Part shown: in pieces, positions 13,059 through 52,740 of the stretch | Layout of the letters: every line of letters starts with the position of its first letter | Numbering within the stretch: position 1 is the stretch's first letter | NCBI GenBank assembly: GCA_000092065.1 | Contig: CP000597.1 | DNA: 64,000 bases | Direction: 5' to 3' (one strand) | From: Ostreococcus lucimarinus | Taxonomy: Eukaryota | The notes under the pieces: generated by a model | Database searches by the model: none | Told to the model about the DNA's origin: nothing | What the model saw: only the letters and a program-made list of their open reading frames with translations | Translations under genes and position numbers: made by a program

Positions 13059-13275
13059 ACTTTCGATCCGCGCGCTTCGAGCGCCCGAAATCGCCGCGCG
13101 CGCGTCACCGAGTGCGGATTTAACCGGTTTTCGCTTGAAAAAGATGCCATCTAATCTCGGCGATCGCCATCACATCGCGACGTCGCTCGCGCGCGCGACG
13201 CCTGTCGCGCCCCCGCGCGTCGCGATCGCGAAGAAATCGTAAGTTCGCGCTCGTCGACGGTGAGATCGGGACGAC

Positions 13276-19374: not shown

Positions 19375-19527
19375 ATCGCGTCATCATCGCACACGTTATT
19401 AATCCACACCTATCGCAGCCCATCGCCGCCGCCCTCCGTCGCGAACGCGTCCCGCTGGAAAATCTCCGGCTGCACTCCACAACCGATCGCGCACCTCACA
19501 TCGCGCCTCGCGCGCGCGTTCGCCGCG

Positions 19528-21192: not shown

Positions 21193-21266
21193 GAGTAACG
21201 CCATGTTTCGGAAAATCGAACTCGGCATCGTGTGACGACCATACCGCACAACGCCGACCACCCAAA

Positions 21267-21725
21267 ATGCCGAAAGACAATCGCGGCCTAAGCGGCGTTC
21301 GCGCCACGGCCGTCTTCCTACTGCTCCGCGCGTGGTACTGCGAAGCCGCGCGTCCGCTGCGTCCGTACGAAGCGCCGCTGGTCGCGCCTTTCGTCGCGCC
21401 GGAGGCGTTGATCAAATGGCAACCCGCGGAGTGGTCCATCGCGCTCGCCCCGTCGTCCGAAGATCCATACGTTCCATCGACGAACGCCGACGACGCCATC
21501 GTCGCCGAATCACTCGATCTCACCGACGAATCGCTCGATCTCACCGACGTTTCGCGCGTCTCCCACGGCCACGCGGCGCGTCTCTGGCGCGCGTTCGCGA
21601 ATCGCGCCCGCGACGTCTCCATCGAACCCATCGCCGCCGCGGTCGCCATCAAGCGCGAGGGTTGGACCGGCGGCTCGATACAATCTTCCGCTTCGTTCGC
21701 CGTCGTCGACGACGCGCGCGATTGA
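21267..21725 (+). CDS. Hypothetical small protein with signal-peptide-like N-terminus
   Basis: ATG at 21267. N-terminal segment AVFLLLRAWYCEA. Contains a 21-bp tandem duplication encoding ESLDLTD twice (about 21508-21549). An overlapping ORF in another frame (21332..) makes the model uncertain. Confidence 0.3.
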   Translation: MPKDNRGLSGVRATAVFLLLRAWYCEAARPLRPYEAPLVAPFVAPEALIKWQPAEWSIALAPSSEDPYVPSTNADDAIVAESLDLTDESLDLTDVSRVSHGHAARLWRAFANRARDVSIEPIAAAVAIKREGWTGGSIQSSASFAVVDDARD

Positions 21726-21856
21726 GCGCGTCGTCTCTTAATACCTCTCCGGCGACGCTTCGTCTTTTAATACCTCAGAAGTGCTTCGTCGCGAACCGTC
21801 ACCGACACTCATCGACGCTTCGTCGCGACGCCGGCGCCGTCTTCGTCGCGATCGGC

Positions 21857-22498
21857 ATGCGGCGTCGCGACAGAGACGTCCCGCGCGACGAGAATCCGCG
21901 GCGCGTCATCGACGCGCACTTCGGACGACGCGACGACGACGACGCGCCGCCGCTCCTGGACTCGAGCGAACAGCGCGACGCGCTCCGCGCCTTCGACGAC
22001 GCGATCGCGACGCATCGACGGCGCGCGAGCGCGCTGCTGGGCGCGAGCGGACTCGCGATCGGCGTGGGATGGTTTTGGGGACGGTGCGCGCTCGGCGCGC
22101 TCGGCGGCGGCGACGTGTGGGCGCGGTGCCCGGCGCACCGAAGCGTGTACGGCGAACGCGCGTCGGCCGAGGCGCTGGTGCTCGCGTGCGACGCGCTCGC
22201 GGGCGGGACGTTCGCGCTGTCCGGGGCGGGATGTTGGCGGTTGCGCGTCGGCGACGACGCCGGCGACGCGGCGGCGAGACGCGCGGGACGCGCGGCGACG
22301 CGTTTGGGCGCCGTCGCGGGGGGGCTGTGGGTCGTCGCGGCGATCGCGGCGTCGTCGTCGAGCGGCGCGACGACGTTGCAGGCGGCGGTACCGGTGGTGT
22401 ACGCGTGGCTGTGCGCGTCGGTGGCGTCGGCGACGGCGGAGCAGACGCGAACGATTCGGCGACTGCGAGCTTCGACGTACGCGCACAAAAAGGTGTGA
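21857..22498 (+). CDS. Hypothetical multi-pass membrane protein (213 aa)
   Basis: ATG at 21857 inside ORF 21332..22498. Hydrophobic segments ALLGASGLAIGVGWFWGRCALGALG and LGAVAGGLWVVAAIAA. The upstream part of this ORF looks like GC-driven noise. Confidence 0.3.
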   Translation: MRRRDRDVPRDENPRRVIDAHFGRRDDDDAPPLLDSSEQRDALRAFDDAIATHRRRASALLGASGLAIGVGWFWGRCALGALGGGDVWARCPAHRSVYGERASAEALVLACDALAGGTFALSGAGCWRLRVGDDAGDAAARRAGRAATRLGAVAGGLWVVAAIAASSSSGATTLQAAVPVVYAWLCASVASATAEQTRTIRRLRASTYAHKKV

Positions 22499-36767: not shown

Positions 36768-36950
36768 CGCCCATCGACGCCCATTTTCATCGCTTCGCCT
36801 CCCTCGCGCCTCGCGTCCCGCGTCCGTCGCTCCCGCCTAACCACCCCTGACGAGTCGTGACCCATCGGGACCCCCGTCGAGTTTAAACCGTGCGCGCGAG
36901 CCGCGGGCGGTCGCGCACTTCGCGACGCGCCGTCGCGCGCTACGACGCGC

Positions 36951-39900
36951 ATGCGGCTCGACGACGGCGACGACGCGCGACGAAGGGACGCGCGCGCGGT
37001 TCGAGCGCGCGCGACGCGGACGCCGACGCGCGCGGCGACCACGCGCGGCGATGTCGTCGACGCCGCTGCCGCCGATGATGACATCGACGACGACGCCGTC
37101 GCGCGACCGGACGCGACGCGACGACGACGACGCGACGACGACGCGACGACGACGACGCGCGATGATGAGACGACGCGCGCGCGAGAGGGCGCGAGCGGAC
37201 GCCGGCGAGCGCGGGAACGAGGGAGAGCGACGAGGCGTCGTCGACGGCTCGGGACGGCGGCGGCGGCGGCGGCGACGGCGGCGTTGGCGGCGACGGTCGA
37301 GCGCGTCGGCGTGGACGCGTCGACGGCGCTCACGAAGGGGGTGGCGAGGAATGGTTTCGTGTCGTCGAGCGGGTATAAGTACTATAAGGTGAATGTGGCG
37401 TGCGTGGAGGCGGCGCAGCCGCTGACGTTGGAGCTGACGACGAGCAACGGGGACGCGAACTTGTACGTGTCTCGATCGGCGCAGCCGACGACTTCGTCGT
37501 ACGAACAGCGGAGCGTGAACGTTGGAAATGCGTTGGATTCGGTGACGATCACGAGTCCGGTGAATGGGTACTATTACGTGAGCGTGTACGGCGCGCTGTC
37601 CAGCACGTACAAGCTTCGAGCGCTCACGACGATGTTTACCGGGAAACATCCGTGCACGGGATTTCGAATCACCGATAGCGACGTCTCGAGCGTTGGCTCG
37701 GGATCTGGAAATCAGTTCATACTGCAAGAAGCGCTCACCGCGAGCGCGGCGGCGGGATTCACCGCGGATGTGTCCGTCGACGGCGACGTCATCCTCGGCG
37801 ACGCGTACACCGATTCGGTGACGGCGAAAGGAGAGCTCAAGCTCGGCGTGACGGACAGTACGTACTACGCCATCACGCGACAATCGCCGAGCGCACCGAG
37901 CAGCAACCCGGGCGGCGCTTTGTCGATCGTCGGCGCGAACGCGACCTATCAGGGGGGATCGGTAAAGATTCTCGGCGGAACGGGCGGTTCGGGGGCGGGC
38001 GGCGACGTCGTGATCGAGGCGGGGTCGGCGTCTGGCGGCAACGGTGGCGATTTGAAGTTACGTGGCGGCACGTCGAACTCAGGAACGGGCGGCGACGTCG
38101 TCATAGATGCCGGAGATAGCACGACACAAGCATCTTCGTACGAGGGCATCATTCACATAGGTCCAACTTCTGCGTCGTTTGTGCGCGTCGGCGAGAGTTC
38201 AAATAAGCAAGTTCAAACCGATATTTTCGGCGACTTGACGGTGCACGGAAATCTCTTGACAACGAATGATGTGGTGTACGCGAACAGCTACACGAGTTAC
38301 GTGCAGGTTTCAACCTCTCAAGACGGCATGTTTCATCAAGAAGTGCGCGCGCCAAAGATTACAGGTCTGGACGCGGAGGACATCACGGGCACTCCAACGA
38401 GCACGTTGACTTTAGACGCTGGCATGCGAGGGAGTCAGCAACACGTCGTGATCGCTCCGAGCGAGGCAACGGCGGTTTACATAGGTAGCAGCACATCCAC
38501 GATTCCGGTCTCGATAAGGCAAGGCGCGAACGCAGGAGACGTGCGAGTGCACGCTGATGGCAGCGGCGCGCTGTCCGTGACTTCGGCCGCAGGGCAGGAC
38601 CTGACGCTCGCGTCCGGCGACGACGTGGTGGTGACCACCGCGGCGAGTAAGACGCTCGCGCTGAAGCAGGACTCGACGAGCATTTTGAGCTGGGACGCGG
38701 CCGGCGCTGTGACTGTGAACTCCGTGAGCGGGCAGGACCTGACGCTGAGCACGGGCGGTAGCGCGGCCGTGACTGTGGACTCGACCGGGCAGGTGGGCAT
38801 CGGGACGACGACGCCGGGGAAGACGCTGGACGTCACCGGGACGGCGCGCGTGAGTGGCGCGACGACGCTGAGTAGCACGCTTGACGTGACTGGCGCTACG
38901 ACGCTCGCATCCGTGGGCGTGACCGGTGCGGCCACCGTCGGCGGGACTTTAGGTGTGACTGGCGCTACGACGCTCGCATCCGTGGGCGTGACCGGCGCGG
39001 CCACCGTCGGCGGGACTTTAGGTGTGACTGGCGCTACGACGCTCGCATCCGTGGGCGTGACCGGCGCGGCCACCGTCGGCACGACGCTCGGCGTGACTGG
39101 CGCTACGACGCTCACCGGCGACGTGACGATGAGCAACGACTTGACCGTGAGCGGTGCGCTTACTGTGACATCTGATGCCGCTGTGAGTTTGACCTCTGCA
39201 AGTGGTTCGGACGTGAGCTTGACGAGCGCCGGTACGGGTGGCATCGTGTTGACGTCGACGGACGACATCACGCTCGATGCTGCCGATGATGTGACGATCG
39301 ATGCCGCCGGTGCTTTGTCTTTGGAGCAGGGCGGGACGAGTATTTTGAGCTGGACCGACACCGGCGCTGTGACTTTGAACTCCTTAGGCGGGCAGACCCT
39401 GAGCGTGTCGAGCCTCAGCTCGGCCGGGAACGCGGGCGCCGTGAGCGTGTCCGGCGGCACGACGACTGGGACGTCCTCGAACACCGGCGGCGACTTGACG
39501 CTGCAATCTGGCGGCGCGCCCGCTGGCAGCGTGAACGGTGACGTTCTGGTGGACTCGGCCACTGGTCTAGGCACCGCCGGCTCGATCACGCTTCGCCAGG
39601 GGGTGGGCGGTGAGCGTGTTTCTGTGGACGCGAACGGCGCCGTGAGTCTGGACACGCACTCCGGGCAGGACCTGACGCTGAGCACGGGCGGTAGCGCGGC
39701 CGTGACTGTGGACTCGACCGGGCAGGTGGGCATCGGGACGACGACGCCGGGGAAGACGCTGGACGTCACCGGGACGGCGCGCGTGAGTGGCGCGACGACG
39801 CTGAGTAGCACGCTTGGCGTGACTGGCGCTACGACGCTCGCATCCGTGGGCGTGACCGGTGCGGCCACCGTCGGCGGGACTTTAGGTGTGACTGGCGCTA

Positions 39901-42900
39901 CGACGCTCGCATCCGTGGGCGTGACCGGCGCGGCCACCGTCGGCACGACGCTCGGCGTGACTGGCGCTACGACGCTCACCGGCGACGTGACGATGAGCAA
40001 CGACTTGACCGTGAGCGGTGCGCTTACTGTGACATCTGATGCCGCTGTGAGTTTGACCTCTGCAAGTGGTTCGGACGTGAGCTTGACGAGCGCCGGTACG
40101 GGTGGCATCGTGTTGACGTCGACGGACGACATCACGCTCGATGCTGCCGATGATGTGACGATCGATGCCGCCGGTGCTTTGTCTTTGGAGCAGGGCGGGA
40201 CGAGTATTTTGAGCTGGACCGACACCGGCGCTGTGACTTTGAACTCCTTAGGCGGGCAGACCCTGAGCGTGTCGAGCCTCAGCTCGGCCGGGAACGCGGG
40301 CGCCGTGAGCGTGTCCGGCGGCACGACGACTGGGACGTCCTCGAACACCGGCGGCGACTTGACGCTGCAATCTGGCGGCGCGCCCGCTGGCAGCGTGAAC
40401 GGTGACGTTCTGGTGGACTCGGCCACTGGTCTAGGCACCGCCGGCTCGATCACGCTTCGCCAGGGGGTGGGCGGTGAGCGTGTTTCTGTGGACGCGAACG
40501 GCGCCGTGAGTCTGGACACGCACTCCGGGCAGGACCTGACGCTGAGCACGGGCGGTAGCGCGGCCGTGACTGTGGACTCGACCGGGCAGGTGGGCATCGG
40601 GACGACGACGCCGGGGAAGACGCTGGACGTCACCGGGACGGCGCGCGTGAGTGGCGCGACGACGCTGAGTAGCACGCTTGGCGTGACTGGCGCTACGACG
40701 CTCGCATCCGTGGGCGTGACCGGTGCGGCCACCGTCGGCGGGACTTTAGGTGTGACTGGCGCTACGACGCTCGGCGGGACTTTAGGTGTGACTGGCGCTA
40801 CGACGCTCGCATCCGTGGGCGTGACCGGCGCGGCCACCGTCGGCACGACGCTTGGCGTGACTGGCGCTACGACGCTCGGCGGGACTTTAGGTGTGACTGG
40901 CGCTACGACGCTCGCATCCGTGGGCGTGACCGGCGCGGCCACCGTCGGCACGACGCTCGGCGTGACTGGCGCTACGACGCTCGCATCTGTGGGCGTGACC
41001 GGTGCGGCCACCGTCGGCGGGACTTTAGGTGTGACTGGCGCTACGACGCTCACCGGCGACGTGACGATGAGCAACGACTTGACCGTGAGCGGTGCGCTTA
41101 CTGTGACATCTGATGCCGCTGTGAGTTTGACCTCTGCAAGTGGTTCGGACGTGAGCTTGACGAGCGCCGGTACGGGTGGCATCGTGTTGACGTCGACGGA
41201 CGACATCACGCTCGATGCTGCCGATGATGTGACGATCGATGCCGCCGGTGCTTTGTCTTTGGAGCAGGGCGGGACGAGTATTTTGAGCTGGACCGACACC
41301 GGCGCTGTGACTTTGAACTCCTTAGGCGGGCAGACCCTGAGCGTGTCGAGCCTCAGCTCGGCCGGGAACGCGGGCGCCGTGAGCGTGTCCGGCGGCACGA
41401 CGACTGGGACGTCCTCGAACACCGGCGGCGACTTGACGCTGCAATCTGGCGGCGCGCCCGCTGGCAGCGTGAACGGTGACGTTCTGGTGGACTCGGCCAC
41501 TGGTCTAGGCACCGCCGGCTCGATCACGCTTCGCCAGGGGGTGGGCGGTGAGCGTGTTTCTGTGGACGCGAACGGCGCCGTGAGTCTGGACACGCACTCC
41601 GGGCAGGACCTGACGCTGAGCACGGGCGGTAGCGCGGCCGTGACTGTGGACTCGACCGGGCAGGTGGGCATCGGGACGACGACGCCGGGGAAGACGCTGG
41701 ACGTCACCGGGACGGCGCGCGTGAGTGGCGCGACGACGCTGAGTAGCACGCTTGGCGTGACTGGCGCTACGACGCTCGCATCCGTGGGCGTGACCGGTGC
41801 GGCCACCGTCGGCGGGACTTTAGGTGTGACTGGCGCTACGACGCTCGGCGGGACTTTAGGTGTGACTGGCGCTACGACGCTCGCATCCGTGGGCGTGACC
41901 GGTGCGGCCACCGTCGGCGGGACTTTAGGTGTGACTGGCGCTACGACGCTCGGCACGACGCTCGGCGTGACTGGCGCTACGACGCTCGCATCCGTGGGCG
42001 TGACCGGCGCGGCCACCGTCGGCACGACGCTCGGCGTGACTGGCGCTACGACGCTCACCGGCGACGTGACGATGAGCAACGACTTGACCGTGAGCGGTGC
42101 GCTTACTGTGACATCTGATGCCGCTGTGAGTTTGACCTCTGCAAGTGGTTCGGACGTGAGCTTGACGAGCGCCGGTACGGGTGGCATCGTGTTGACGTCG
42201 ACGGACGACATCACGCTCGATGCTGCCGATGATGTGACGATCGATGCCGCCGGTGCTTTGTCTTTGGAGCAGGGCGGGACGAGTATTTTGAGCTGGACCG
42301 ACACCGGCGCTGTGACTTTGAACTCCTTAGGCGGGCAGACCCTGAGCGTGTCGAGCCTCAGCTCGGCCGGGAACGCGGGCGCCGTGAGCGTGTCCGGCGG
42401 CACGACGACTGGGACGTCCTCGAACACCGGCGGCGACTTGACGCTGCAATCTGGCGGCGCGCCCGCTGGCAGCGTGAACGGTGACGTTCTGGTGGACTCG
42501 GCCACTGGTCTAGGCACCGCCGGCTCGATCACGCTTCGCCAGGGGGTGGGCGGTGAGCGTGTTTCTGTGGACGCGAACGGCGCCGTGAGTCTGGACACGC
42601 ACTCCGGGCAGGACCTGACGCTGAGCACGGGCGGTAGCGCGGCCGTGACTGTGGACTCGACCGGGCAGGTGGGCATCGGGACGACGACGCCGGGGAAGAC
42701 GCTGGACGTCACCGGGACGGCGCGCGTGAGTGGCGCGACGACGCTGAGTAGCACGCTTGGCGTGACTGGCGCTACGACGCTCGGCGGGACTTTAGGTGTG
42801 ACTGGCGCTACGACGCTCGCATCCGTGGGCGTGACCGGCGCGGCCACCGTCGGCACGACGCTCGGCGTGACTGGCGCTACGACGCTCGCATCCGTGGGCG

Positions 42901-45900
42901 TGACCGGCGCGGCCACCGTCGGCACGACGCTCGGCGTGACTGGCGCTACGACGCTCACCGGCGACGTGACGATGAGCAACGACTTGACCGTGAGCGGTGC
43001 GCTTACTGTGACATCTGATGCCGCTGTGAGTTTGACCTCTGCAAGTGGTTCGGACGTGAGCTTGACGAGCGCCGGTACGGGTGGCATCGTGTTGACGTCG
43101 ACGGACGACATCACGCTCGATGCTGCCGATGATGTGACGATCGATGCCGCCGGTGCTTTGTCTTTGGAGCAGGGCGGGACGAGTATTTTGAGCTGGACCG
43201 ACACCGGCGCTGTGACTTTGAACTCCTTAGGCGGGCAGACCCTGAGCGTGTCGAGCCTCAGCTCGGCCGGGAACGCGGGCGCCGTGAGCGTGTCCGGCGG
43301 CACGACGACTGGGACGTCCTCGAACACCGGCGGCGACTTGACGCTGCAATCTGGCGGCGCGCCCGCTGGCAGCGTGAACGGTGACGTTCTGGTGGACTCG
43401 GCCACTGGTCTAGGCACCGCCGGCTCGATCACGCTTCGCCAGGGGGTGGGCGGTGAGCGTGTTTCTGTGGACGCGAACGGCGCCGTGAGTCTGGACACGC
43501 ACTCCGGGCAGGACCTGACGCTGAGCACGGGCGGTAGCGCGGCCGTGACTGTGGACTCGACCGGGCAGGTGGGCATCGGGACGACGACGCCGGGGAAGAC
43601 GCTGGACGTCACCGGGACGGCGCGCGTGAGTGGCGCGACGACGCTGAGTAGCACGCTTGGCGTGACTGGCGCTACGACGCTCGCATCCGTGGGCGTGACC
43701 GGTGCGGCCACCGTCGGCGGGACTTTAGGTGTGACTGGCGCTACGACGCTCGCATCCGTGGGCGTGACCGGCGCGGCCACCGTCGGCACGACGCTCGGCG
43801 TGACTGGCGCTACGACGCTCGCATCCGTGGGCGTGACCGGCGCGGCCACCGTCGGCACGACGCTTGGCGTGACTGGCGCTACGACGCTCGGCGGGACTTT
43901 AGGTGTGACTGGCGCTACGACGCTCGCATCCGTGGGCGTGACCGGCGCGGCCACCGTCGGCACGACGCTCGGCGTGACTGGCGCTACGACGCTCGCATCT
44001 GTGGGCGTGACCGGTGCGGCCACCGTCGGCGGGACTTTAGGTGTGACTGGCGCTACGACGCTCACCGGCGACGTGACGATGAGCAACGACTTGACCGTGA
44101 GCGGTGCGCTTACTGTGACATCTGATGCCGCTGTGAGTTTGACCTCTGCAAGTGGTTCGGACGTGAGCTTGACGAGCGCCGGTACGGGTGGCATCGTGTT
44201 GACGTCGACGGACGACATCACGCTCGATGCTGCCGATGATGTGACGATCGATGCCGCCGGTGCTTTGTCTTTGGAGCAGGGCGGGACGAGTATTTTGAGC
44301 TGGACCGACACCGGCGCTGTGACTTTGAACTCCTTAGGCGGGCAGACCCTGAGCGTGTCGAGCCTCAGCTCGGCCGGGAACGCGGGCGCCGTGAGCGTGT
44401 CCGGCGGCACGACGACTGGGACGTCCTCGAACACCGGCGGCGACTTGACGCTGCAATCTGGCGGCGCGCCCGCTGGCAGCGTGAACGGTGACGTTCTGGT
44501 GGACTCGGCCACTGGTCTAGGCACCGCCGGCTCGATCACGCTTCGCCAGGGGGTGGGCGGTGAGCGTGTTTCTGTGGACGCGAACGGCGCCGTGAGTCTG
44601 GACACGCACTCCGGGCAGGACCTGACGCTGAGCACGGGCGGTAGCGCGGCCGTGACTGTGGACTCGACCGGGCAGGTGGGCATCGGGACGACGACGCCGG
44701 GGAAGACGCTGGACGTCACCGGGACGGCGCGCGTGAGTGGCGCGACGACGCTGAGTAGCACGCTTGACGTGACTGGCGTTACGACGCTCGCATCCGTGGG
44801 CGTGACCGGTGCGGCCACCGTCGGCACGACGCTCGGCGTGACTGGCGCTACGACGCTCGCATCCGTGGGCGTGACCGGTGCGGCCACCGTCGGCGGGACT
44901 TTAGGTGTGACTGGCGCTACGACGCTCGGCACGACGCTCGGCGTGACTGGCGCTACGACGCTCGCATCCGTGGGCGTGACCGGCGCGGCCACCGTCGGCA
45001 CGACGCTCGGCGTGACTGGCGCTACGACGCTCACCGGCGACGTGAGCGTCGGGACTTCCTCGGCTTTGAGTTTTGGTTCTGCAACCCGGCAGATGATCAA
45101 CTTATATGGAACAAACAACGCCATCGGCGTGCAATCGTCCACGATGTATTTTCGTAGTGCTTATAACTTTGCCTTTTTTGAAGGCGGCGTGTACACCAAC
45201 ACAGAGCTCGATCCGGGTTCGGGTGGCACTTTGCGCATGATGATTCAGAAAACCACGGGCAACGTCGGTATCGGGACGGCGAGTCCAGATTATGAACTCG
45301 ACGTGGTAGGCGATATCAACTTTTCTGGGAATCTCTATCAGGGTGGTTCGCTGTTTGCCTCCCCCTGGACGGAGAGCAGCGGTAACGTGTATCGCAGTAG
45401 CGGTAACGTCGGCATCGGGCTGACGAATCCGACCTACAATCTGCACGTTGCTGGAACGGGGCGCGTTAGTACGACGCTATCGGTGGGTCAAGATTTAACC
45501 ATCGACACGGCTGGCGACTTGAACTTTGCGGCGACGCATCGTCAGATGATCAACCTCCGCGTCGGCGCCGAGGGTTTCGGGATCGGGACGCAGATGGACA
45601 CGACGTACTTTCGCTCTCCGGGCCACTTTGCGTTCTACGAAGACGGAACGCACAGCACCACTGACTTGGACGCGAACGGTGGCACCGCGCGTCTGGTGAT
45701 CAGGAGCGGCGGGAAGGTGGGCATCGGGCGGACGAATCCGAGCTATGATCTCGACGTGGTAGGCGATATCAACTTTTCTGGGAATCTCTATCAGGGCGGT
45801 TCTCTGTTCCCGTCCCCCTCCCCCTGGACGGAGAGCGGCAGTAACGTGTATCGTAGTAGCGGTAACGTCGGCATCGGGCTGACGAATCCGAGCTACAAAC

Positions 45901-47045
45901 TGGACGTCACTGGAACAGGACACTTCACGGGCGCGACGACGATCGATGACCAACTCACCGTTGGCGGTAACGTATTGATCCAAAGTACAACCAATAAGAT
46001 TTCGTTTGGCAGCACAGCGCGTCAGTTTATTGAAACGAATAACGGTGGAATCGGAACGCAGTCAAAGACGCTGTATTTTCGTTCACAGGATTTTTTCGGC
46101 TTTTACAAAAATGGCGGTCACAACAGCGCCGATCTGAACCCAGGCGGAAGCGGGACTCTCCTTGTCGCCATTCGCGGTGACATCTCTGGTGCTCGAATGG
46201 CGATTGGATCTTCAGACACAGATAGTGGCTACGCTTTTAAGGTCACCGGGTCGGCGCAAGCGACCGCTGCGCTCGACGTAGGCACGACGCTTAATGTGGC
46301 GTCGTACGCGACAATTCGCGGCGACTTGCGCCTCAATACCGGTACTCAGCAAATAAATTTTGGTACCCAGCACCGTCAGGTTGCTGCGCTCGCGACTGGC
46401 GGCATCGGAACGCAGTCGAACACTGTATACTTTCGTTCACAGGACTTGTTTGGCTTTTATAAAGGTGGCGGCCATAGCTCTACCGCTCTTGATCCAGGCG
46501 GAAGCGGGACTCTCCTTGTCACCATTCGCGGTGACGTCTCTGGTCCTCGATTAGGAGTCGGAGTCACGAATCCCTCCTACGCTCTCGAAGTCAATGGAGC
46601 GGCGCACGTGTCTGGCGCACTGAGCAAGGGAAGTGGCTCTTTCAAGATCGATCATCCACTTCCTGAAATGAAAGACACGCATAATTTGTATCACTCCTTC
46701 ATCGAGGGACCACGGGCGGATCTCATCTACAGAGGCAAGGTTCGTTTGCAGAACGGTAGGGCGATGATAGACATCGATGCCGCATCAAACATGACGACAG
46801 GGACATTTGAAGCACTCAATCGCGACGTGCAGTCGTTCACGTCAAATGAAAGCGACTGGGACCCCGTCCGAGGTTCTGTCGTGGGCAACGTCCTCACCAT
46901 TGAGTGTCAAAACCCCACTTCGACGGCACTCATCAGCTGGCTTGTCATCGGTGAGCGTCACGATCAGCACATGTACGACACAGATTGGACCGATGAAAAC
47001 GGTCGTGTCGTTCCGGAACAATTGAAAAAGAGTGCGACGACGTGA
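36951..47045 (+). CDS. Giant (3,364 aa) repeat protein: PPC-like domain, nested tandem repeats, tail-fibre-like C-terminal region
   Basis: ATG at 36951. Arg/Asp leader followed by an Ala-rich hydrophobic anchor (about 37240-37300). PPC-like segment YKYYKVNV...LELTTSNGDANLYVSRS...GYYYVSVYG at about 37371-37630. Repeat array at 38730-45040. Four divergent repeats containing GNVGIG...P.Y.LDV.GDINFSGNLYQGG at 45040-46560. C-terminal FKIDHPLPEMKDTHNLYHSFIEGPRADLIYRGK. Confidence 0.85.
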   Translation: MRLDDGDDARRRDARAVRARATRTPTRAATTRGDVVDAAAADDDIDDDAVARPDATRRRRRDDDATTTTRDDETTRAREGASGRRRARERGRATRRRRRLGTAAAAAATAALAATVERVGVDASTALTKGVARNGFVSSSGYKYYKVNVACVEAAQPLTLELTTSNGDANLYVSRSAQPTTSSYEQRSVNVGNALDSVTITSPVNGYYYVSVYGALSSTYKLRALTTMFTGKHPCTGFRITDSDVSSVGSGSGNQFILQEALTASAAAGFTADVSVDGDVILGDAYTDSVTAKGELKLGVTDSTYYAITRQSPSAPSSNPGGALSIVGANATYQGGSVKILGGTGGSGAGGDVVIEAGSASGGNGGDLKLRGGTSNSGTGGDVVIDAGDSTTQASSYEGIIHIGPTSASFVRVGESSNKQVQTDIFGDLTVHGNLLTTNDVVYANSYTSYVQVSTSQDGMFHQEVRAPKITGLDAEDITGTPTSTLTLDAGMRGSQQHVVIAPSEATAVYIGSSTSTIPVSIRQGANAGDVRVHADGSGALSVTSAAGQDLTLASGDDVVVTTAASKTLALKQDSTSILSWDAAGAVTVNSVSGQDLTLSTGGSAAVTVDSTGQVGIGTTTPGKTLDVTGTARVSGATTLSSTLDVTGATTLASVGVTGAATVGGTLGVTGATTLASVGVTGAATVGGTLGVTGATTLASVGVTGAATVGTTLGVTGATTLTGDVTMSNDLTVSGALTVTSDAAVSLTSASGSDVSLTSAGTGGIVLTSTDDITLDAADDVTIDAAGALSLEQGGTSILSWTDTGAVTLNSLGGQTLSVSSLSSAGNAGAVSVSGGTTTGTSSNTGGDLTLQSGGAPAGSVNGDVLVDSATGLGTAGSITLRQGVGGERVSVDANGAVSLDTHSGQDLTLSTGGSAAVTVDSTGQVGIGTTTPGKTLDVTGTARVSGATTLSSTLGVTGATTLASVGVTGAATVGGTLGVTGATTLASVGVTGAATVGTTLGVTGATTLTGDVTMSNDLTVSGALTVTSDAAVSLTSASGSDVSLTSAGTGGIVLTSTDDITLDAADDVTIDAAGALSLEQGGTSILSWTDTGAVTLNSLGGQTLSVSSLSSAGNAGAVSVSGGTTTGTSSNTGGDLTLQSGGAPAGSVNGDVLVDSATGLGTAGSITLRQGVGGERVSVDANGAVSLDTHSGQDLTLSTGGSAAVTVDSTGQVGIGTTTPGKTLDVTGTARVSGATTLSSTLGVTGATTLASVGVTGAATVGGTLGVTGATTLGGTLGVTGATTLASVGVTGAATVGTTLGVTGATTLGGTLGVTGATTLASVGVTGAATVGTTLGVTGATTLASVGVTGAATVGGTLGVTGATTLTGDVTMSNDLTVSGALTVTSDAAVSLTSASGSDVSLTSAGTGGIVLTSTDDITLDAADDVTIDAAGALSLEQGGTSILSWTDTGAVTLNSLGGQTLSVSSLSSAGNAGAVSVSGGTTTGTSSNTGGDLTLQSGGAPAGSVNGDVLVDSATGLGTAGSITLRQGVGGERVSVDANGAVSLDTHSGQDLTLSTGGSAAVTVDSTGQVGIGTTTPGKTLDVTGTARVSGATTLSSTLGVTGATTLASVGVTGAATVGGTLGVTGATTLGGTLGVTGATTLASVGVTGAATVGGTLGVTGATTLGTTLGVTGATTLASVGVTGAATVGTTLGVTGATTLTGDVTMSNDLTVSGALTVTSDAAVSLTSASGSDVSLTSAGTGGIVLTSTDDITLDAADDVTIDAAGALSLEQGGTSILSWTDTGAVTLNSLGGQTLSVSSLSSAGNAGAVSVSGGTTTGTSSNTGGDLTLQSGGAPAGSVNGDVLVDSATGLGTAGSITLRQGVGGERVSVDANGAVSLDTHSGQDLTLSTGGSAAVTVDSTGQVGIGTTTPGKTLDVTGTARVSGATTLSSTLGVTGATTLGGTLGVTGATTLASVGVTGAATVGTTLGVTGATTLASVGVTGAATVGTTLGVTGATTLTGDVTMSNDLTVSGALTVTSDAAVSLTSASGSDVSLTSAGTGGIVLTSTDDITLDAADDVTIDAAGALSLEQGGTSILSWTDTGAVTLNSLGGQTLSVSSLSSAGNAGAVSVSGGTTTGTSSNTGGDLTLQSGGAPAGSVNGDVLVDSATGLGTAGSITLRQGVGGERVSVDANGAVSLDTHSGQDLTLSTGGSAAVTVDSTGQVGIGTTTPGKTLDVTGTARVSGATTLSSTLGVTGATTLASVGVTGAATVGGTLGVTGATTLASVGVTGAATVGTTLGVTGATTLASVGVTGAATVGTTLGVTGATTLGGTLGVTGATTLASVGVTGAATVGTTLGVTGATTLASVGVTGAATVGGTLGVTGATTLTGDVTMSNDLTVSGALTVTSDAAVSLTSASGSDVSLTSAGTGGIVLTSTDDITLDAADDVTIDAAGALSLEQGGTSILSWTDTGAVTLNSLGGQTLSVSSLSSAGNAGAVSVSGGTTTGTSSNTGGDLTLQSGGAPAGSVNGDVLVDSATGLGTAGSITLRQGVGGERVSVDANGAVSLDTHSGQDLTLSTGGSAAVTVDSTGQVGIGTTTPGKTLDVTGTARVSGATTLSSTLDVTGVTTLASVGVTGAATVGTTLGVTGATTLASVGVTGAATVGGTLGVTGATTLGTTLGVTGATTLASVGVTGAATVGTTLGVTGATTLTGDVSVGTSSALSFGSATRQMINLYGTNNAIGVQSSTMYFRSAYNFAFFEGGVYTNTELDPGSGGTLRMMIQKTTGNVGIGTASPDYELDVVGDINFSGNLYQGGSLFASPWTESSGNVYRSSGNVGIGLTNPTYNLHVAGTGRVSTTLSVGQDLTIDTAGDLNFAATHRQMINLRVGAEGFGIGTQMDTTYFRSPGHFAFYEDGTHSTTDLDANGGTARLVIRSGGKVGIGRTNPSYDLDVVGDINFSGNLYQGGSLFPSPSPWTESGSNVYRSSGNVGIGLTNPSYKLDVTGTGHFTGATTIDDQLTVGGNVLIQSTTNKISFGSTARQFIETNNGGIGTQSKTLYFRSQDFFGFYKNGGHNSADLNPGGSGTLLVAIRGDISGARMAIGSSDTDSGYAFKVTGSAQATAALDVGTTLNVASYATIRGDLRLNTGTQQINFGTQHRQVAALATGGIGTQSNTVYFRSQDLFGFYKGGGHSSTALDPGGSGTLLVTIRGDVSGPRLGVGVTNPSYALEVNGAAHVSGALSKGSGSFKIDHPLPEMKDTHNLYHSFIEGPRADLIYRGKVRLQNGRAMIDIDAASNMTTGTFEALNRDVQSFTSNESDWDPVRGSVVGNVLTIECQNPTSTALISWLVIGERHDQHMYDTDWTDENGRVVPEQLKKSATT
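38730..45040 (+). repeat. Near-identical nested tandem array inside the giant CDS (6 full units plus 1 partial)
   Basis: The QDLTLSTGGSAAVTVDSTGQVGIGTTTPGKTLDVTG landmark recurs at 38730, 39663, 40527, 41601, 42606, 43506 and 44613. Unit lengths are 933, 864, 1074, 1005, 900 and 1107 bp. All length differences are sums of 69-bp (ASVGVTGAATVGGTLGVTGATTL) and 36-bp (GGTLGVTGATTL) sub-repeats. Units are almost identical at nucleotide level by eye. Confidence 0.9.
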
Positions 47046-47163: not shown

Positions 47164-50100
47164 CTATAGTCTAAAAGATAGCTTTGCGAACTCTCCGTCG
47201 GACACCGCGTCGCTCGTCTGCCCCCCCGTCGCGCCGTCATCGCTCGTTTCGCTTCCGAGCAACGAAGACGCCTTTCGCCGGCGCTCAGGCGAATCGTCCG
47301 CGTCCCGAAAATCGTAGAGATAATCGCTATGCCTTGCATAATGCACCCGCGTCGCTTCTTCTCCTGAGGCATTAAATCTATACGACTCGGGAGAAAATGA
47401 TGACTGAGCGAATCTGTCCTCATCTGACGCGCTCTCTTCGGCGTCGTACGATTCACCCATGGAATACGCCAGTTCGCTCGGTTCACGTTCACTCAGTCCA
47501 TCATTCGGTGTATTCAGCCCTGGTTGGCGTCCACTAGATGGGTCTTTCATCTCAAACGCGTAATGATCGTCATCCGAGTCAGCATCCGTGGAAGATGCGT
47601 AAGCACGCCGCGACTCAAACCTGTTCTCACCAAAAAATGCGGCGCCGCGTAGAGGTTCCGGTGGTTCCAGTTCTAGTTCGGGTTCCGGTTCCGGTCGCAC
47701 TTCCCGTTCTGCTGTCACATCCGTCTCTGGTGCGAGATCTAAGATGGACTGGTTCCGTCCGGGCACGACGTTACCCTGCTCTCCATTCGTCTCGAATGCG
47801 GCGAGCGTCGCGACGTGATCGCGAGCGACACTCCCGCCTCGGTGACCCTTTACGACGGCACGTTCTTCCTGAGCGCTGTGGGTGAATCTCTCAATCACGC
47901 TACGCGCTTTGGTTGATGCGTCAAATAACGCGCCACCAGGTTCGCGCGACCGCACGACTTTCTTTTTAATTCTGATTGCGAGTCGTCGAAGCTGAATCGT
48001 GTGCTTGATAATTTCCACCACCTCCTCGGTGTCGTACAGTCCCTCGTCGTCCGCTGATACTGAGAATCTTTCGAGAATGATCGCCACAAATAAATTTCCG
48101 AGCAAAAATATAGAGATGATGACAAATGATATAAAGTATGGGACCGCAGCAGCGTTATACGAGCAGTCGATGCTGGATTCCAACATGAACGGTGCTTCTG
48201 TGCGTAAGCACGCCTCTGTTTGGTACACCTCGCCGAACGTGCCAACCCAGCCACCCGTGTACACCCCGATGAGAGATGAGCAAGCTGTGGTGAATCGTTG
48301 AAAGTTCGAGTACTTCGATAGCACGCCGCCTTCGAAAGGGCCGGTTTCATCGCCGAAAAGTGAAACACCCATGATGGCGTACGAAAAGATCGCGAGGGAC
48401 GATAGCGCGGCGACGTTTCCGACACCCGGAAGACTCATTATGAACGTGTTGAAGAGCGACCGCAGCCCAGAATGTGCCTTTACCAGTTTCAGTAATCTCA
48501 ACAATCTCACCAATTGTAGGTAATTCATGACACCGCCTGCGTTTAGACTTTGTCCGATCGCCTGTACGATGGAAACTACGACGACGAAGGCGTCCAGCCA
48601 ATTCCAATAATTCCTAAAGTAACGCGTCCGACCTTGCGCCATGAGCAAAAGCATCATTTCCAAAGAGTACACCGCAGTGAACGCGATAGACATGCAGAAG
48701 TGAGCATATTCTGCTGAACTGCTCATATTCGCCGTTTGTGTCAAGAGCTCGATTAAATTTGCGCACACTACCACGAGGATGAAGTACGCAAACTTTTTCG
48801 GCTTTGAGATATGATGCGCAAGTAGACGAGCTCGCGACCAAAGGCTTTTGCCTGGCGGCGGTACGATTCTGCGCCATGCCTCTGAATCTTGCGTGCTTGC
48901 ACGTAGTATAGCCTGCTGCCAGCGCCGCTGCGCTGGGGTGACAAACGTAAGCTTGTCTTGCGAAGCCATCTTGTTAAAGTTGTCCACGAGCGCCGTGACT
49001 AATAAATTCAACCAAAAGAAATTCCCGATGGCGACCGTCAATACAAAATAAAGAGCGGCGGCTTGGTTGTTATCTGTTTTCAAGCCGGTCCCGACGCCTG
49101 TGGTATCCATGGCGACCCACATGATTTCTTGCCAGTCATCGCCGGCGTGCAGTAGAAACGTCGATAAAAGTGCAGCGCCAAAGTTATCAAAGTTGAACTT
49201 TGCATTTCGCCACTTTCCTCCCGCTGCCTCGCACGTTGCTTGTGTAGTGTAGCTACTCGCATCATTCACCACTCGACACGACCAAAACTTACCCATAAAG
49301 AGCTCCATACCAAGAAGTGCGAAAATTGACATGGAAACTAAACCGATGAAGCACACGTAACTTACGGCTGGGATCGCGGAAAGTACAGTGTTAACGACAA
49401 GGCGGAGACCAGGGAAACGACGAATGGATCGAAGCGGGCGCATGATTCGCAAAAGTCGAAGTGCTCGCACGCTTCCGCTGCCATCGTCTGCCGCGGTGAG
49501 CGAAATGATTGATGTAAAGACGACGACGCCATCGAGAATGTTGAAGGAATTCTTCAGATACGCAGTCGGTCGCTCGTACAACCCGTAGGCGAATAACTTT
49601 AATACCATCTCTGCGCCAAATAAAGTCGTAAAAGTAATATCAACCGCGGTGTACACTTTTGCAGTATGAGATCCCGCCACTGGCCAAGTCTTTGTTTCTG
49701 TCGCGAGTAACACGCTACCAGCGATGATCATGCATAGAATGGCGTTCTCAAAGAGGTTGTGTGAAACAATTTTGTGCACCAAGTATTTGTATCTCTCGAC
49801 GGGAATCGTATCGTCGTACAGCGGTATAAAGTCGCCATCTTTTGTGACGATCACGCCCGGTATCTCTGACGACTGTTTCTTCACGCGTGAGGAGATGGAT
49901 CTCGTGATTGTCGCCGCCCAAGGACCGTGCGCGTCAAAGACGACATGCTCGTCTTCCTTACTCTTATCCTCGATGCTTAAACGATTGTTTTGCGCCGCAA
50001 ATCTTTTCGTCATACTGTGCCTAATAGAACTTTTGATAGAGCTAGTCACCCCGAACGCTTTGTCTTGATAGTCTTGATACTCCACAAACTTTGGCGTCAG

Positions 50101-52740
50101 GCGAAGTTGAGCCTCCTTAAGAGCGTGCTCGCTTATGGTCAGTACTTGCGCCGGTGTCTTCAACTTGAATCCGATCGAATCTAGAAATATCCTGCACGCA
50201 GCAACATCTTCGACTGTTTGCTTTCTCAAGCGGTCCTTCTTGACCTGCGCGAGCTTGCCACCGTGATCCGGAGGCTTTAATGCTGCGAGTACGGATGAAA
50301 TCGCCGTAGGCGTACTGCCATCGGCCGTCTTTAAACTCTTTTTCGCTTGCGATTGTATTGCTTGTTCGGCACATTCTTGTTTCCTGGCCGCATCCAAAAG
50401 ATTAAACTTGAAGCTCGTATCACCTCTGTCTTTTATCGAGTCGCCGCGCTTGCTGCGCGCATGTTTTCGCAACGTACTCCTGAATGCGTTCGCCGCGAAT
50501 GTCATGTTTTGCAGTACCCGTTTCGCTTTCCGATTCGGATCTAGCACGATATCACCCGCACGTTCGATGGCAGACCTCAGTCTGCCATCTTCAAGCTCGT
50601 CTTGCGCGCGTTGCTCTTCCTCGATGTCGACGAGCGAACACGAGTCGATTAAAATCCCGAGCACGAGCGACAAGATGACGGTGGATAAAAAAATCCACGC
50701 GATGGTGTACAGAACGACGACGTCGTTACCGGACGCTACCATAGTATTCCACGCGACAACAAACGAGTCCTCTCCCGTGGCGACAACAAACAGCGTCAAC
50801 GCGCTGCGCAAAAAGTTCCTAAACGTCAAGCGCTCGTCGTCGAGCGCTCCTAACCCGGTGAAGAGTTGAAATCCGTAAATGGCAAATATGACTTGAAATA
50901 ATAGCCAAACGATCAAAAACGGCCACATGTCTTGGAAACCGAGATACGCGCTTGAAATGATCTTCCTAAATTCTCTGTTGTTTCTGATGACGCGAAACGT
51001 TCGCAGCGCCCTTCCTATTCGCAAGAGACGAATGAATGACGCGCTCACGCCTTGACTCGTCACCGCCGTACTGATGACACCGGTAAACACGATCAACCCA
51101 TCGACAACGTTTTGCTTTGAGCTCCAGTATCCTCTAAAGCCGTATCCGATGTGTTTAATCGCCATTTCTACAGCAAAACATCCGAGGAAAACATATTCTA
51201 AAATTTCAGAAGCCTTGACGAATCCCGACGACGCCGCGTGATGCTGCGACATCATCAAAATTGTATTAAATATAATAACCACCGTGATGCTGGCATCAAA
51301 ACGTCGGTCTTCAGCGATTTTCCAGCACATTTGACGCGTTGCATCAGACACAAAGAGACGAAAAAAACGCTCACCATTCTTGTGAAAGTTGTTTCCGCGT
51401 CCATCGCTTTCGCCGCGACTGAGCGCCGTCTCGTCGTCCAAGCTTTCTAGTACTTTCTCTGTCTTCGCCTGGCTCGAGTCTTCGGGCGCTTCGTCTTCGT
51501 CGCGAATACCCATTTGCGTCAACGTCGCGCAAATGACGGATGTAAAGAGTTCCATCATAAAAAACCCACCCATCAGAACGACGACGATGAACCAAAGAAA
51601 CGCCGCGGGATAGCCAACCGCGTACGCCGTGGGATTGAGCAACTCATTCCAACCGTCGATGGTCATTCCATTTAACGCGACAATTGAACTTCTCCCAGCG
51701 TTCGCAAAGCTCAGAAATCCGTCATACGGCTCGATGCCCGAATCACAGCACCACTCCGTCGCGCTTCTGTTTGTGTTCCATTCCTTGTAGTTGCACGTGC
51801 TGTCGTACTCATTTGGGTACGTTCCTTCGGCGCCCAACGCGAGAGCGCCCATCCACGCGCCGACCAAGTTCGCACACGTCTCACTCCCCGTCCCCACGGG
51901 AAACACGTAGCTCGCGTTCGTCGCTTGATCCGGCGGCGTCCCGTACCACCGTCCCGTCATCCGACCGCCGAACATCGTCACGCCGCTCACCGCGAAGAAT
52001 ATTAAAAACCACAGCAAAAACAACAGCACGTCCCCCAACAACGGCAGCGCTCGAGCGATCGTTTTCATCGCCAACCTCGCGCTGCGGTACTTCGCGAACA
52101 ACTTGAACGCGTACAACGACCGCAACAGTCGCACCGTCACCACCTGCGAGCCTCCGATCGGCATCAACATCAACGACAGCACGACGAGCGTGAAATCGAA
52201 CCGATGCCAATTCGTCGTCAAGTACGCCCCCTCGCCCAGCGCGAATCCCAGCGCCACGCTCTTCACCAGCGCCTCCGCCGCGAACACCCCCGCGACGACG
52301 TAATTCGCCGCCGTCGCCGCCGTCGCCTCCGCCGCGCCATCCCTCGCCGGTTTCACCACCGCGACGATCGCGCTCGAGCCCACGACGCACATCGCGACGA
52401 CGGCGTGAAACGCGCGCGCCTCGATCGCGCGCGCGCAGAACCGTCGCGTCGCGCCGTCGCGCCGGAACATCAACAGCGACGCGTCGTTCGCGCGCCATCG
52501 CTCGAGCGTCCTCGCGACGCGTCGCGTCACCGCGCCTCCCGCGTCGTCGTCGCCGTCGCGCGCGTCGTCGTCGTCGTCGTCGCGCGCGCGCGCGCCGTCG
52601 CGCGCGTCGCGCGCGTCGCCGTCGTCGTCGTCGTCGTCGCTCGTCGAGCTCGCGCGCGCGCTGTCGTCCACCTTCCGCGCGCGCGCCTCGCGCGCGTCGC
52701 GCGCGCGCGACACGAACGCGTCCGTGAACTGAAAGTTCAT
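47164..52740 (-). CDS. Four-domain voltage-gated cation channel (Cav/Nav superfamily)
   Basis: ATG at 52740. Four 6-TM repeats with Arg/Lys-every-third S4 helices: VRLLRSLYAFKLFAKYR, IRLLRIGRALRTFRVIR, VRALRLLRIMRPLRSIRR, LQLVRLLRLLKLVKAHSGLR. Pore loops: MTIDGWNEL, ATGEDSF, HAGDDWQEI, YTGGWVG. Confidence 0.9.
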   Translation of the reverse strand: MNFQFTDAFVSRARDAREARARKVDDSARASSTSDDDDDDGDARDARDGARARDDDDDDARDGDDDAGGAVTRRVARTLERWRANDASLLMFRRDGATRRFCARAIEARAFHAVVAMCVVGSSAIVAVVKPARDGAAEATAATAANYVVAGVFAAEALVKSVALGFALGEGAYLTTNWHRFDFTLVVLSLMLMPIGGSQVVTVRLLRSLYAFKLFAKYRSARLAMKTIARALPLLGDVLLFLLWFLIFFAVSGVTMFGGRMTGRWYGTPPDQATNASYVFPVGTGSETCANLVGAWMGALALGAEGTYPNEYDSTCNYKEWNTNRSATEWCCDSGIEPYDGFLSFANAGRSSIVALNGMTIDGWNELLNPTAYAVGYPAAFLWFIVVVLMGGFFMMELFTSVICATLTQMGIRDEDEAPEDSSQAKTEKVLESLDDETALSRGESDGRGNNFHKNGERFFRLFVSDATRQMCWKIAEDRRFDASITVVIIFNTILMMSQHHAASSGFVKASEILEYVFLGCFAVEMAIKHIGYGFRGYWSSKQNVVDGLIVFTGVISTAVTSQGVSASFIRLLRIGRALRTFRVIRNNREFRKIISSAYLGFQDMWPFLIVWLLFQVIFAIYGFQLFTGLGALDDERLTFRNFLRSALTLFVVATGEDSFVVAWNTMVASGNDVVVLYTIAWIFLSTVILSLVLGILIDSCSLVDIEEEQRAQDELEDGRLRSAIERAGDIVLDPNRKAKRVLQNMTFAANAFRSTLRKHARSKRGDSIKDRGDTSFKFNLLDAARKQECAEQAIQSQAKKSLKTADGSTPTAISSVLAALKPPDHGGKLAQVKKDRLRKQTVEDVAACRIFLDSIGFKLKTPAQVLTISEHALKEAQLRLTPKFVEYQDYQDKAFGVTSSIKSSIRHSMTKRFAAQNNRLSIEDKSKEDEHVVFDAHGPWAATITRSISSRVKKQSSEIPGVIVTKDGDFIPLYDDTIPVERYKYLVHKIVSHNLFENAILCMIIAGSVLLATETKTWPVAGSHTAKVYTAVDITFTTLFGAEMVLKLFAYGLYERPTAYLKNSFNILDGVVVFTSIISLTAADDGSGSVRALRLLRIMRPLRSIRRFPGLRLVVNTVLSAIPAVSYVCFIGLVSMSIFALLGMELFMGKFWSCRVVNDASSYTTQATCEAAGGKWRNAKFNFDNFGAALLSTFLLHAGDDWQEIMWVAMDTTGVGTGLKTDNNQAAALYFVLTVAIGNFFWLNLLVTALVDNFNKMASQDKLTFVTPAQRRWQQAILRASTQDSEAWRRIVPPPGKSLWSRARLLAHHISKPKKFAYFILVVVCANLIELLTQTANMSSSAEYAHFCMSIAFTAVYSLEMMLLLMAQGRTRYFRNYWNWLDAFVVVVSIVQAIGQSLNAGGVMNYLQLVRLLRLLKLVKAHSGLRSLFNTFIMSLPGVGNVAALSSLAIFSYAIMGVSLFGDETGPFEGGVLSKYSNFQRFTTACSSLIGVYTGGWVGTFGEVYQTEACLRTEAPFMLESSIDCSYNAAAVPYFISFVIISIFLLGNLFVAIILERFSVSADDEGLYDTEEVVEIIKHTIQLRRLAIRIKKKVVRSREPGGALFDASTKARSVIERFTHSAQEERAVVKGHRGGSVARDHVATLAAFETNGEQGNVVPGRNQSILDLAPETDVTAEREVRPEPEPELELEPPEPLRGAAFFGENRFESRRAYASSTDADSDDDHYAFEMKDPSSGRQPGLNTPNDGLSEREPSELAYSMGESYDAEESASDEDRFAQSSFSPESYRFNASGEEATRVHYARHSDYLYDFRDADDSPERRRKASSLLGSETSDDGATGGQTSDAVSDGEFAKLSFRL

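Follow-up and report, generated by a model that had tools for sequence, protein, structure and literature searches.

The 64,000-nucleotide stretch of Ostreococcus lucimarinus DNA analysed here (contig CP000597.1 of GenBank assembly GCA_000092065.1; below, the window) contains about 6.3 kb of nearly identical, nested tandem repeats, and the question raised by this locus is whether such a block is a satellite or a part of a gene and, if the latter, what kind of product would be built from it. A sequence-only reading had described the block, at 38730–45040, as units whose lengths differ only by the counts of 69- and 36-bp sub-repeats. The block is not a satellite; it makes up, in frame, the repetitive central part of a single O. 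lucimarinus CCE9901 gene that encodes 3364 amino acids (aa). We consider it likely that the product is a host-encoded, phage-like mosaic fibre, the shaft of which is remodelled by in-frame unequal recombination.

Repeat units and the reading frame

All seven landmarks that had been used to define the units (38730, 39663, 40527, 41601, 42606, 43506, and 44613) open with an identical 60-mer, GGGCAGGACCTGACGCTGAGCACGGGCGGT..., the first 30 bases of which occur seven times on the plus strand and never on the minus strand of the whole window, and the landmark spacing reproduces the claimed unit lengths of 933, 864, 1074, 1005, 900, and 1107 bp. The left edge of the block is sharp, identity dropping to 37% in the 150 nt leftward of 38730, and the right edge, 45045, falls 34 nt inside a seventh tail. 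Tandem Repeats Finder (TRF), proposed earlier as a check and now run on the window, recovers periods of 69, 36, 105, 138, and 174 bp; the outer period of ~0.9–1.1 kb exceeds its limit, and the spacings of 864, 1074, 1005, 900, and 1107 bp were shown by a separate repeat search. The nested repeat structure is far beyond chance.

The seven landmarks lie in frame 0 of a single open reading frame (ORF), and every unit, sub-repeat, and length difference (69, 36, 33 bp) is divisible by three. The layout of this ORF and its predicted product is as follows.

36951–47045, plus strand: single ORF of 3364 codons for a giant fibre-like protein, enclosing the whole repeat block (ORF list and translation)
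36951–37373, plus strand: charged, low-complexity N-terminal stretch, rich in Arg, Asp, Thr, and Ala, closing with the Ala-rich segment LGTAAAAAATAALAATV (translation)
37374–37592, plus strand: bacterial pre-peptidase C-terminal (PPC) domain, aa 142–214 (Pfam PF04151, E=1.2e-8, 36.2 bits with a cutoff of 25.9)
37593–38591, plus strand: unique Gly/Ser/Thr-rich N-terminal region of beta type (translation)
38592–38729, plus strand: single-copy 45-aa sub-module GQDLTLASGDDVVV...ILSWDAAGAVTVNSVS, which the alternative allele described below carries in amplified form, as a 135-bp sub-repeat
38730–45045, plus strand: nested tandem repeat block of six full units (starting at 38730, 39663, 40527, 41601, 42606, and 43506) and a partial seventh (44613–45045)
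45033–46550, plus strand: four C-terminal fibre modules (...RQMINL...YFRS...GNVGIG..P.Y.L) with capping loops between them at 45264, 45408, 45717, and 45867
46551–47042, plus strand: C-terminal tip domain of 164 aa, a predicted beta-sandwich common to phage tail fibres

The block is also open in the opposite direction:

38477–45142, minus strand: antisense ORF of 2221 codons (ORF list), a by-product of stop-free, repeated, G+C-rich sequence

It is extremely improbable that the real gene is this antisense ORF or that the region is a non-coding satellite. The antisense frame is long, and its G+C content at third codon positions (GC3) is equally high, at 0.79; however, it has its third codon positions in common with the plus frame, so that GC3 cannot discriminate between the two. 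Moreover, its product is a Pro/Val/Thr low-complexity sequence confined to the repeat, while the plus frame alone extends into unique N- and C-terminal domains and has homologues among PDB, PHROG, and phage proteins. All homology lies in the plus frame, and the antisense ORF was rejected as a mirror artefact.

Parsed from the translation, each unit consists of a constant head of 156 bp, a variable array, and a constant tail of 570 bp. The arrays are composed of two sub-repeats, L, of 69 bp, which encodes the 23 aa VTGATTLASVGVTGAATVG[G/T]TLG, and S, of 36 bp, which encodes 12 aa; S is L without an internal 33 bp, and is a hybrid of the 11-aa and 12-aa half-motifs composing L. The sums by which unit lengths had been explained (+69, +210, +141, +36, and +243 relative to the 864-bp unit) are matched exactly by the arrays LLL, LL, LSLSLL, LSLSL, SLL, and LLLSLL, and the partial seventh copy carries LLSL. 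With the sequence variants of L and S numbered, the arrays and the higher-order elements of the block are:

38886–39092, plus strand: variable array 1, L1 L2 L3
39819–39956, plus strand: variable array 2, L1 L3
40683–41030, plus strand: variable array 3, L1 S1 L4 S1 L3 L5
41757–42035, plus strand: variable array 4, L1 S1 L1 S2 L3
42762–42935, plus strand: variable array 5, S1 L3 L3
43662–44042, plus strand: variable array 6, L1 L3 L4 S1 L3 L5
44769–45011, plus strand: variable array 7, in the partial unit, L6 L1 S2 L3
39957–40682, plus strand: one copy of the 726-bp constant part, made up of the tail of unit 2 (570 bp) and the head of unit 3 (156 bp), the head holding the capping-loop motif VGIGTTTPGKTL
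40527–45045, plus strand: third nesting level, a super-repeat of ~3.0 kb in which units 3–4 resemble units 6–7, with the rare L4, L5, and S2 in common and a 967-nt exact match

Whole units are 98.1–100% identical over aligned columns, in line with the earlier impression, by eye, of near base identity. The synonymous variants mentioned in the same reading could be placed: GGT/GGC distinguishes L1 from L2, TCC/TCT is found in L5, and CTC/CTT in L4; in general, the sub-repeat variants differ mostly by synonymous changes. The 726-bp constant part shows no differences among units 2–6 and one difference in unit 1; its lone variable base, column 154, reads A, with Asp in place of Gly, in unit 1 as well as in the seventh head. 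Exact repeats of 817–967 nt are present, the longest one, of 967 nt, at an offset of 3012.

The similarity of the units had been attributed to very recent expansion or strong concerted evolution, and comparison with the flanks, which are 0.4–0.6% divergent between environmental lineages, agrees with this: such divergence would yield ~3 differences per pair of copies of the 726-bp part, compared to the observed zero to one. Thus, the copies are homogenised beyond the divergence of the surrounding DNA. Nesting comprises three or four levels, from the 11/12-aa motif VTGATTLxxxLG to the 23-aa and 12-aa sub-repeats, to units of 288–369 aa, each bearing one capping-loop motif, and to the super-repeat of ~1000 aa.

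Fibre modules of the encoded protein

Judging by homology, the protein is a mosaic of modules of phage tail fibres and of the mosaic adhesive trimer (MAT) fibres of Bdellovibrio, combining the PPC domain, the shaft, the four fibre modules, and a tip of the tail-fibre type. In the Pfam scan of the entire 3364-aa protein, the PPC domain is the only match, with no S74 (PF13884), collagen, or adhesin family found; the PPC region also matches PDB 2luw (E=0.003). The Arg/Asp/Thr/Ala-rich first ~110 residues are encoded by (CGA)n/(CGG)n-type simple repeats (TRF, 36923–37296), and the Ala-rich segment after them is possibly a weak membrane anchor or a signal sequence. The unique region at 37593–38591 has no Pfam, PHROG, or viral relatives.

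For trimeric beta-helix fibres, which are relatives of phage adhesins, a capping-loop consensus has been established, V-G-G/N-pi-x-x-P-x-x-x-L (PMC10769870). The protein contains 12 capping-loop motifs, seven of which are VGIGTTTPGKTL, one per unit, and five lie in the C-terminal region, as well as 65 11/12-mers of the VTGATTL type. The unit head, LTLSTGGSAAVTVDSTGQVGIGTTTPGKTLDVTG..., matches the crystallised Bd3182-type Bdellovibrio MAT tip (PDB 8ojn, phmmer E=1.4e-5) across the capping loop. The 23-aa L motif, VTGATTLASVGVTGAATVGTTLG, is letter-identical in podophage-like metagenomic proteins of ~435 aa, the C-termini of which resemble the tail fibre of P-SSP7. An HMMER scan with one unit yields 561 proteins at E<=1e-10, many of the top scorers being 3000–6000 aa long with 15–48 matched stretches. 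The shaft thus resembles, in its many copies of head and array motifs, giant S74-terminated fibres: of the three unit relatives checked, two (P0177, P0182) have a Pfam S74 match near the C-terminus and the third (P0178) is called an S74-domain protein by UniRef, whereas the Ostreococcus protein has no S74 match in Pfam. P0178 is GAX83325.1 of the chlorophycean alga Chlamydomonas eustigma, 3075 aa, in which 24 stretches match the unit head and array; hence, phage-type giant fibres may be more widespread in green algae.

Other parts of the unit are less readily placed. For the 190-aa unit tail no viral relatives were found, and only the capping-loop part of the head matched viral sequences; a 358-aa unit query gave array-level matches only, and a search with the 242-aa constant block among 5.8 billion clusters brought up no more than a partial protein of O. 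tauri (54% identity) and a single TARA fragment.

Over its C-terminal 670 aa, the Ostreococcus protein matches Bd2133 of Bdellovibrio (PDB 8ond, phmmer E=1.4e-4) and PHROG tail-fibre families, e.g., the PHROG 9942 tail fibre with E=4.6e-14. In tblastn, the tip shows 50% identity with the end of PSSM2_295, a tail fibre of P-SSM2, and 56% with structural proteins of S-TIM5, and its relatives are found in at least 588 IMG/VR viral contigs with identity up to 74%. In relatives, the tip domain is always at the extreme C-terminus, preceded by very different N-terminal parts, and in the one IMG/VR contig checked the tip-bearing gene adjoins a tail-fibre gene. Two long IMG/VR viral contigs, L122 (280,878 bp) and L126 (388,218 bp), contain the tip domain at 67% identity. 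An AlphaFold2 (AF2) model of the tip from 31 sequences has a predicted local distance difference test (pLDDT) score of 86.3, and the best PDB matches of this model in Foldseek are C-terminal domains of phage tailspikes and R-pyocin fibres, with low template-modelling (TM) scores of ~0.35.

The Ostreococcus protein resembles the non-S74 MAT fibres of Bdellovibrio bacteriovorus (Bd2133 and Bd1334, with Bd3182 for the capping loops) in the recurring capping-loop motif (PMC10769870, PDB 8ond/8ojn), the modular mosaic build, and the exchangeable C-terminal tip in place of the S74 chaperone. It does not fit the S74 subgroup, as PF13884 is missing, and its predicted beta-rich 164-aa tip would correspond to the non-S74 arrangement. 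Unlike MAT genes, the gene is eukaryotic and nuclear and ~3x longer; it encodes an N-terminal PPC domain and a shaft of near-identical tandem units with nested sub-repeats, and the tip is unrelated in sequence to those of Bd2133 and Bd1334. Similarly, the 50–56% identity of the C-terminal 150 aa to fibre ends of marine myophages (P-SSM2, S-TIM5) links the protein to cyanophage tail fibres; unlike these, it is host-encoded among algal genes, syntenic across lineages, with no phage genes nearby, and neither its unit tail nor its N-terminal region has viral relatives.

The host locus and an alternative haplotype

The product of the ORF at 9072–11618 of the window exactly matches XP_001422099.1 of O. 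lucimarinus CCE9901, and the neighbours of the fibre gene are eukaryotic: a four-domain cation channel of the voltage-gated type, PIP5K, a PWWP protein, a pseudouridine synthase, and a zinc finger of the Nse2 type. The N- and C-termini of the giant ORF recur in syntenic environmental contigs; in the orthologous contigs, the downstream order (ion channel, EF-hand protein, DUF6737, kinase) is kept and the C-terminal region is 51–81% identical. Such conserved synteny indicates that the gene is an old resident of Ostreococcus genomes. A phage-virion gene would be expected in a phage genome beside tail genes, whereas the neighbours here are algal, and an endogenous virus or prophage was rejected because of these neighbours and the conserved host synteny. 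One more distant orthologue (contig L007, 1–3822; 51% identity) has 12-aa VTGATTLSSTLG/VTGTSTLTGDVTMSGAATVG arrays set between the C-terminal modules, so that the small 12-aa motif is deployed at different positions in different lineages.

The same observations bear on the explanation that the gene is a non-functional relic, that is, a piece acquired from a phage or virus and expanded neutrally by slippage, with no working protein. The lack of functional annotation, the odd, low-complexity N-terminus, and the fact that the exact product is missing from protein collections would be consistent with decay. However, 3364 codons contain no stop, compared to ~0.025 stops per codon expected at this G+C, and for the ~1600 non-redundant codons the probability of being open by chance is of the order of 1e-18 (both are our own estimates, the former from base composition). 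Further, all indels are in frame, the differences between sub-repeat variants are mostly synonymous, and there are orthologues with a conserved tip (81–100% identity), syntenic across Ostreococcus lineages and in O. tauri. Hence we regard a relic as improbable.

Comparison with related environmental contigs indicates one more feature of the block:

38724–45254, plus strand: segment exchanged for a different sequence in related environmental haplotypes (contig alignment)

Contigs L002 and L003 align to the window at 99.5–99.6% up to position 38723; the alignment resumes at 45255 in L002, L006, and L168, with 99.4–99.5% identity in L002 and L006, and the window's units are absent from these contigs between 38723 and 45255. 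Instead, another unit is repeated at least 13 times in L003 (a 361,732-bp contig of the Joint Genome Institute, JGI; 11765–22442) and L168 (1–6570), consisting of a body of ~121 aa (~363 bp) followed by one to eight 135-bp sub-repeats, with a 51-bp deletion in some units. The alternative body is ~46% identical in amino acids to a part of the window's unit tail, and the 135-bp sub-repeats are homologous to the single-copy window segment 38587–38750, which gives dozens of blastn matches with L003. These units are spaced at 498, 717, 768, 852, 987, and 1173 bp, in a nested manner like that of the window. In L002 there is a single body, perhaps because the assembly has collapsed. What the related contigs hold is thus not the window's unit in a different number of copies but another repeat block (L003, L168) or, in L002, the single body; the block is replaced as a whole in these haplotypes.

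The gene of the alternative haplotype exceeds 13 kb, with frame breaks at 12442 and 14156 of L003 that may be sequencing errors; as the JGI contigs carry such breaks, details of their arrays are not reliable, and the difference between the array patterns of L168 and L003 was not taken as polymorphism, since both contigs have frame breaks and assembly or read errors are possible. The alternative haplotype lacks the first C-terminal module, and the junction falls at a capping-loop motif. Both types of junction are present in environmental data, the window type in P0001, P0175, and P0169, and the other type in P0002 and L006, while the O. tauri fragment joins module types from both haplotypes.

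These contigs are also relevant to the possibility that the repeat family is real, yet the number and order of units in the reference are a product of assembly, being collapsed, expanded, or shuffled. Sanger reads are typically no longer than the exact repeats of 817–967 nt found here. Nearly all short-read metagenome contigs of the gene and its orthologues break at the repeat, starting or stopping just upstream of the C-terminal region, which, together with the different block of the related contigs, indirectly supports the earlier remark that the block is likely polymorphic in copy number and hard to assemble, and a 229-kb contig begins within the alternative array. At the same time, the seven arrays each differ in L/S composition and private variants, providing a unique signature for each unit; the frame is intact across 10 kb; the window-type junction of the last array with the C-terminus, though not the units themselves, recurs in P0001 and P0175, environmental contigs that were assembled independently; and independent large contigs have a similar style of nested repeat in the other haplotype. 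On balance, we consider an assembly product unlikely.

The remaining observations concern other parts of the window. Directly downstream of the fibre gene, an intron-free gene at 47164–52740 on the minus strand encodes the cation channel, of 1858 aa with four Ion_trans repeats; the exact sequence of this channel is absent from the protein collection searched, and the gene sits in a patch of low G+C (~50%, with ~65% around). A single ORF of 2032 aa at 13276–19374 on the plus strand fuses rhodanese, sulfotransferase, AMP-binding, PP-binding, NAD_binding_4 (reductase), and zinc-dependent alcohol dehydrogenase domains, and is predicted to encode an enzyme of the carboxylate-reductase type resembling nonribosomal peptide synthetases. 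Among the 15 cluster members listed for it, the sole one from NCBI/UniRef is the 408-aa O. lucimarinus fragment XP_001422100.1; compared to the 2032-aa ORF, this reference model looks truncated. In 2-kb windows, G+C ranges from ~50% to 72%, and GC skew in the repeat region is steadily +0.10 to +0.13, which may be due to Gly/Val/Thr-rich codon content. Rfam and tRNA scans of the window gave no matches.

Proposed remodelling of the shaft and its meaning

Several observations weigh against a host-encoded mosaic fibre with a remodelled shaft. Neither a signal peptide nor a transmembrane segment could be recognised with confidence, the maximum Kyte–Doolittle mean over 19 residues being 1.29. The start of the ORF at 36951 is predicted, and the true start codon may differ or a 5' intron may exist; the exact 3364-aa product is absent from a collection of 15 billion proteins, so that public annotation may model the gene differently. 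The 190-aa unit tail has no characterised relative, its sole match being the O. tauri partial protein with 54% identity. For one unit, comprising tail, head, and array, the monomer model obtained with AF2 is uninformative, with a pLDDT of 52 and a predicted TM score of 0.31, and a trimeric beta-helix of the shaft would follow only from the match to the short capping-loop motif. Finally, the databases searched contain no independent assembly of the window's exact unit type, and copy number and order come from one assembly with 967-nt exact repeats; this last point also speaks for an assembly product.

Under the mosaic-fibre reading, which we still prefer, the product would be an extracellular fibre, long, of beta structure, and probably trimeric. 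Between the identical 726-bp blocks, and likewise between sub-repeats, gene conversion, replication slippage, and unequal homologous recombination would add or remove whole structural modules with the frame intact and keep the copies homogenised; S would be a recombinant of the two half-motifs of L. In Bd2133, the tip of 370 aa spans ~15 nm (PMC10769870); scaled from it, each unit might contribute ~12–15 nm, with roughly 0.1 um as a guess for the total length. The conserved C-terminal tip would bind a putative ligand, with the shaft setting reach and length.

Intragenic tandem repeats are well known from yeast FLO/ALS genes and bacterial surface proteins, where they are in frame and homogenised, recombination changes their number and hence the length of the exposed protein, and assembly is difficult. 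The Ostreococcus units are likewise in frame and highly homogenised. Unlike FLO/ALS-type repeats, they are nested at three to four levels and correspond to whole modules of putative phage-type fibres, and in the alternative haplotype it is a different module that has been amplified, not the same unit to another copy number. Palindromic amphipathic repeat coding elements (PARCEL), described in Ostreococcus, O. lucimarinus included, as tandem repeats of the WDTSNVTNMxxMF type, ~25 residues long and palindromic in their coding sequence (PMC2996958), were also considered and rejected: the WDTSNVTNMxxMF motif is absent from the translation, the repeats here are Gly/Thr/Val-rich with periods of 11, 12, and 23 aa, and PARCEL occur in different genes. 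Coding tandem repeats in fibre or adhesin genes and mosaic phage-like fibres are already known kinds, whereas we did not find described in the literature a eukaryotic host-encoded version, a shaft nested at three to four levels, or the amplification of alternative modules at a single locus; nor did the literature searches bring up a paper dealing with this host gene.

At least two deeply different shaft haplotypes amid ~99.5% identical flanks suggest diversifying or balancing pressure on the shaft, as in surface-recognition genes. A bolder interpretation, offered tentatively and with rather low confidence, is that a receptor-binding fibre of phage origin is retained as a host gene in Ostreococcus, which is a naked picoalga ~1 um in size, and that one population maintains at least two diverged, independently amplified shafts, making this a balanced or diversifying locus of cell-surface recognition. 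In the evolution of such a locus, different fibre modules would be amplified like cassettes and joined at capping-loop motifs, and its possible roles include an adsorption determinant or decoy for prasinoviruses, bacterial attachment, and mating or self-recognition. In prasinoviruses that infect Ostreococcus, a hypervariable region contains tail-fibre, S74, and FhaB-like genes (PMC12906663), and thus a host–virus connection is worth testing, although the present data show none.

The locus is a trap for assembly and annotation, as the full-length product is missing from the protein collection, the O. tauri homologue is listed as “partial,” and the gene is broken up in each of the short-read assemblies examined, and at the same time the repeat could serve as a high-resolution strain marker. 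Mamiellophyceae are among the most abundant marine picoeukaryotes, and, to our knowledge, the surface molecules governing their virus susceptibility, grazing, and cell–cell contact are largely unknown. A syntenic host gene resembling a giant phage tail fibre, with a shaft rebuilt between near-identical lineages, provides a concrete candidate for such a surface molecule and, if the mosaic-fibre reading holds, a case in which a eukaryote has domesticated modules of phage fibres.

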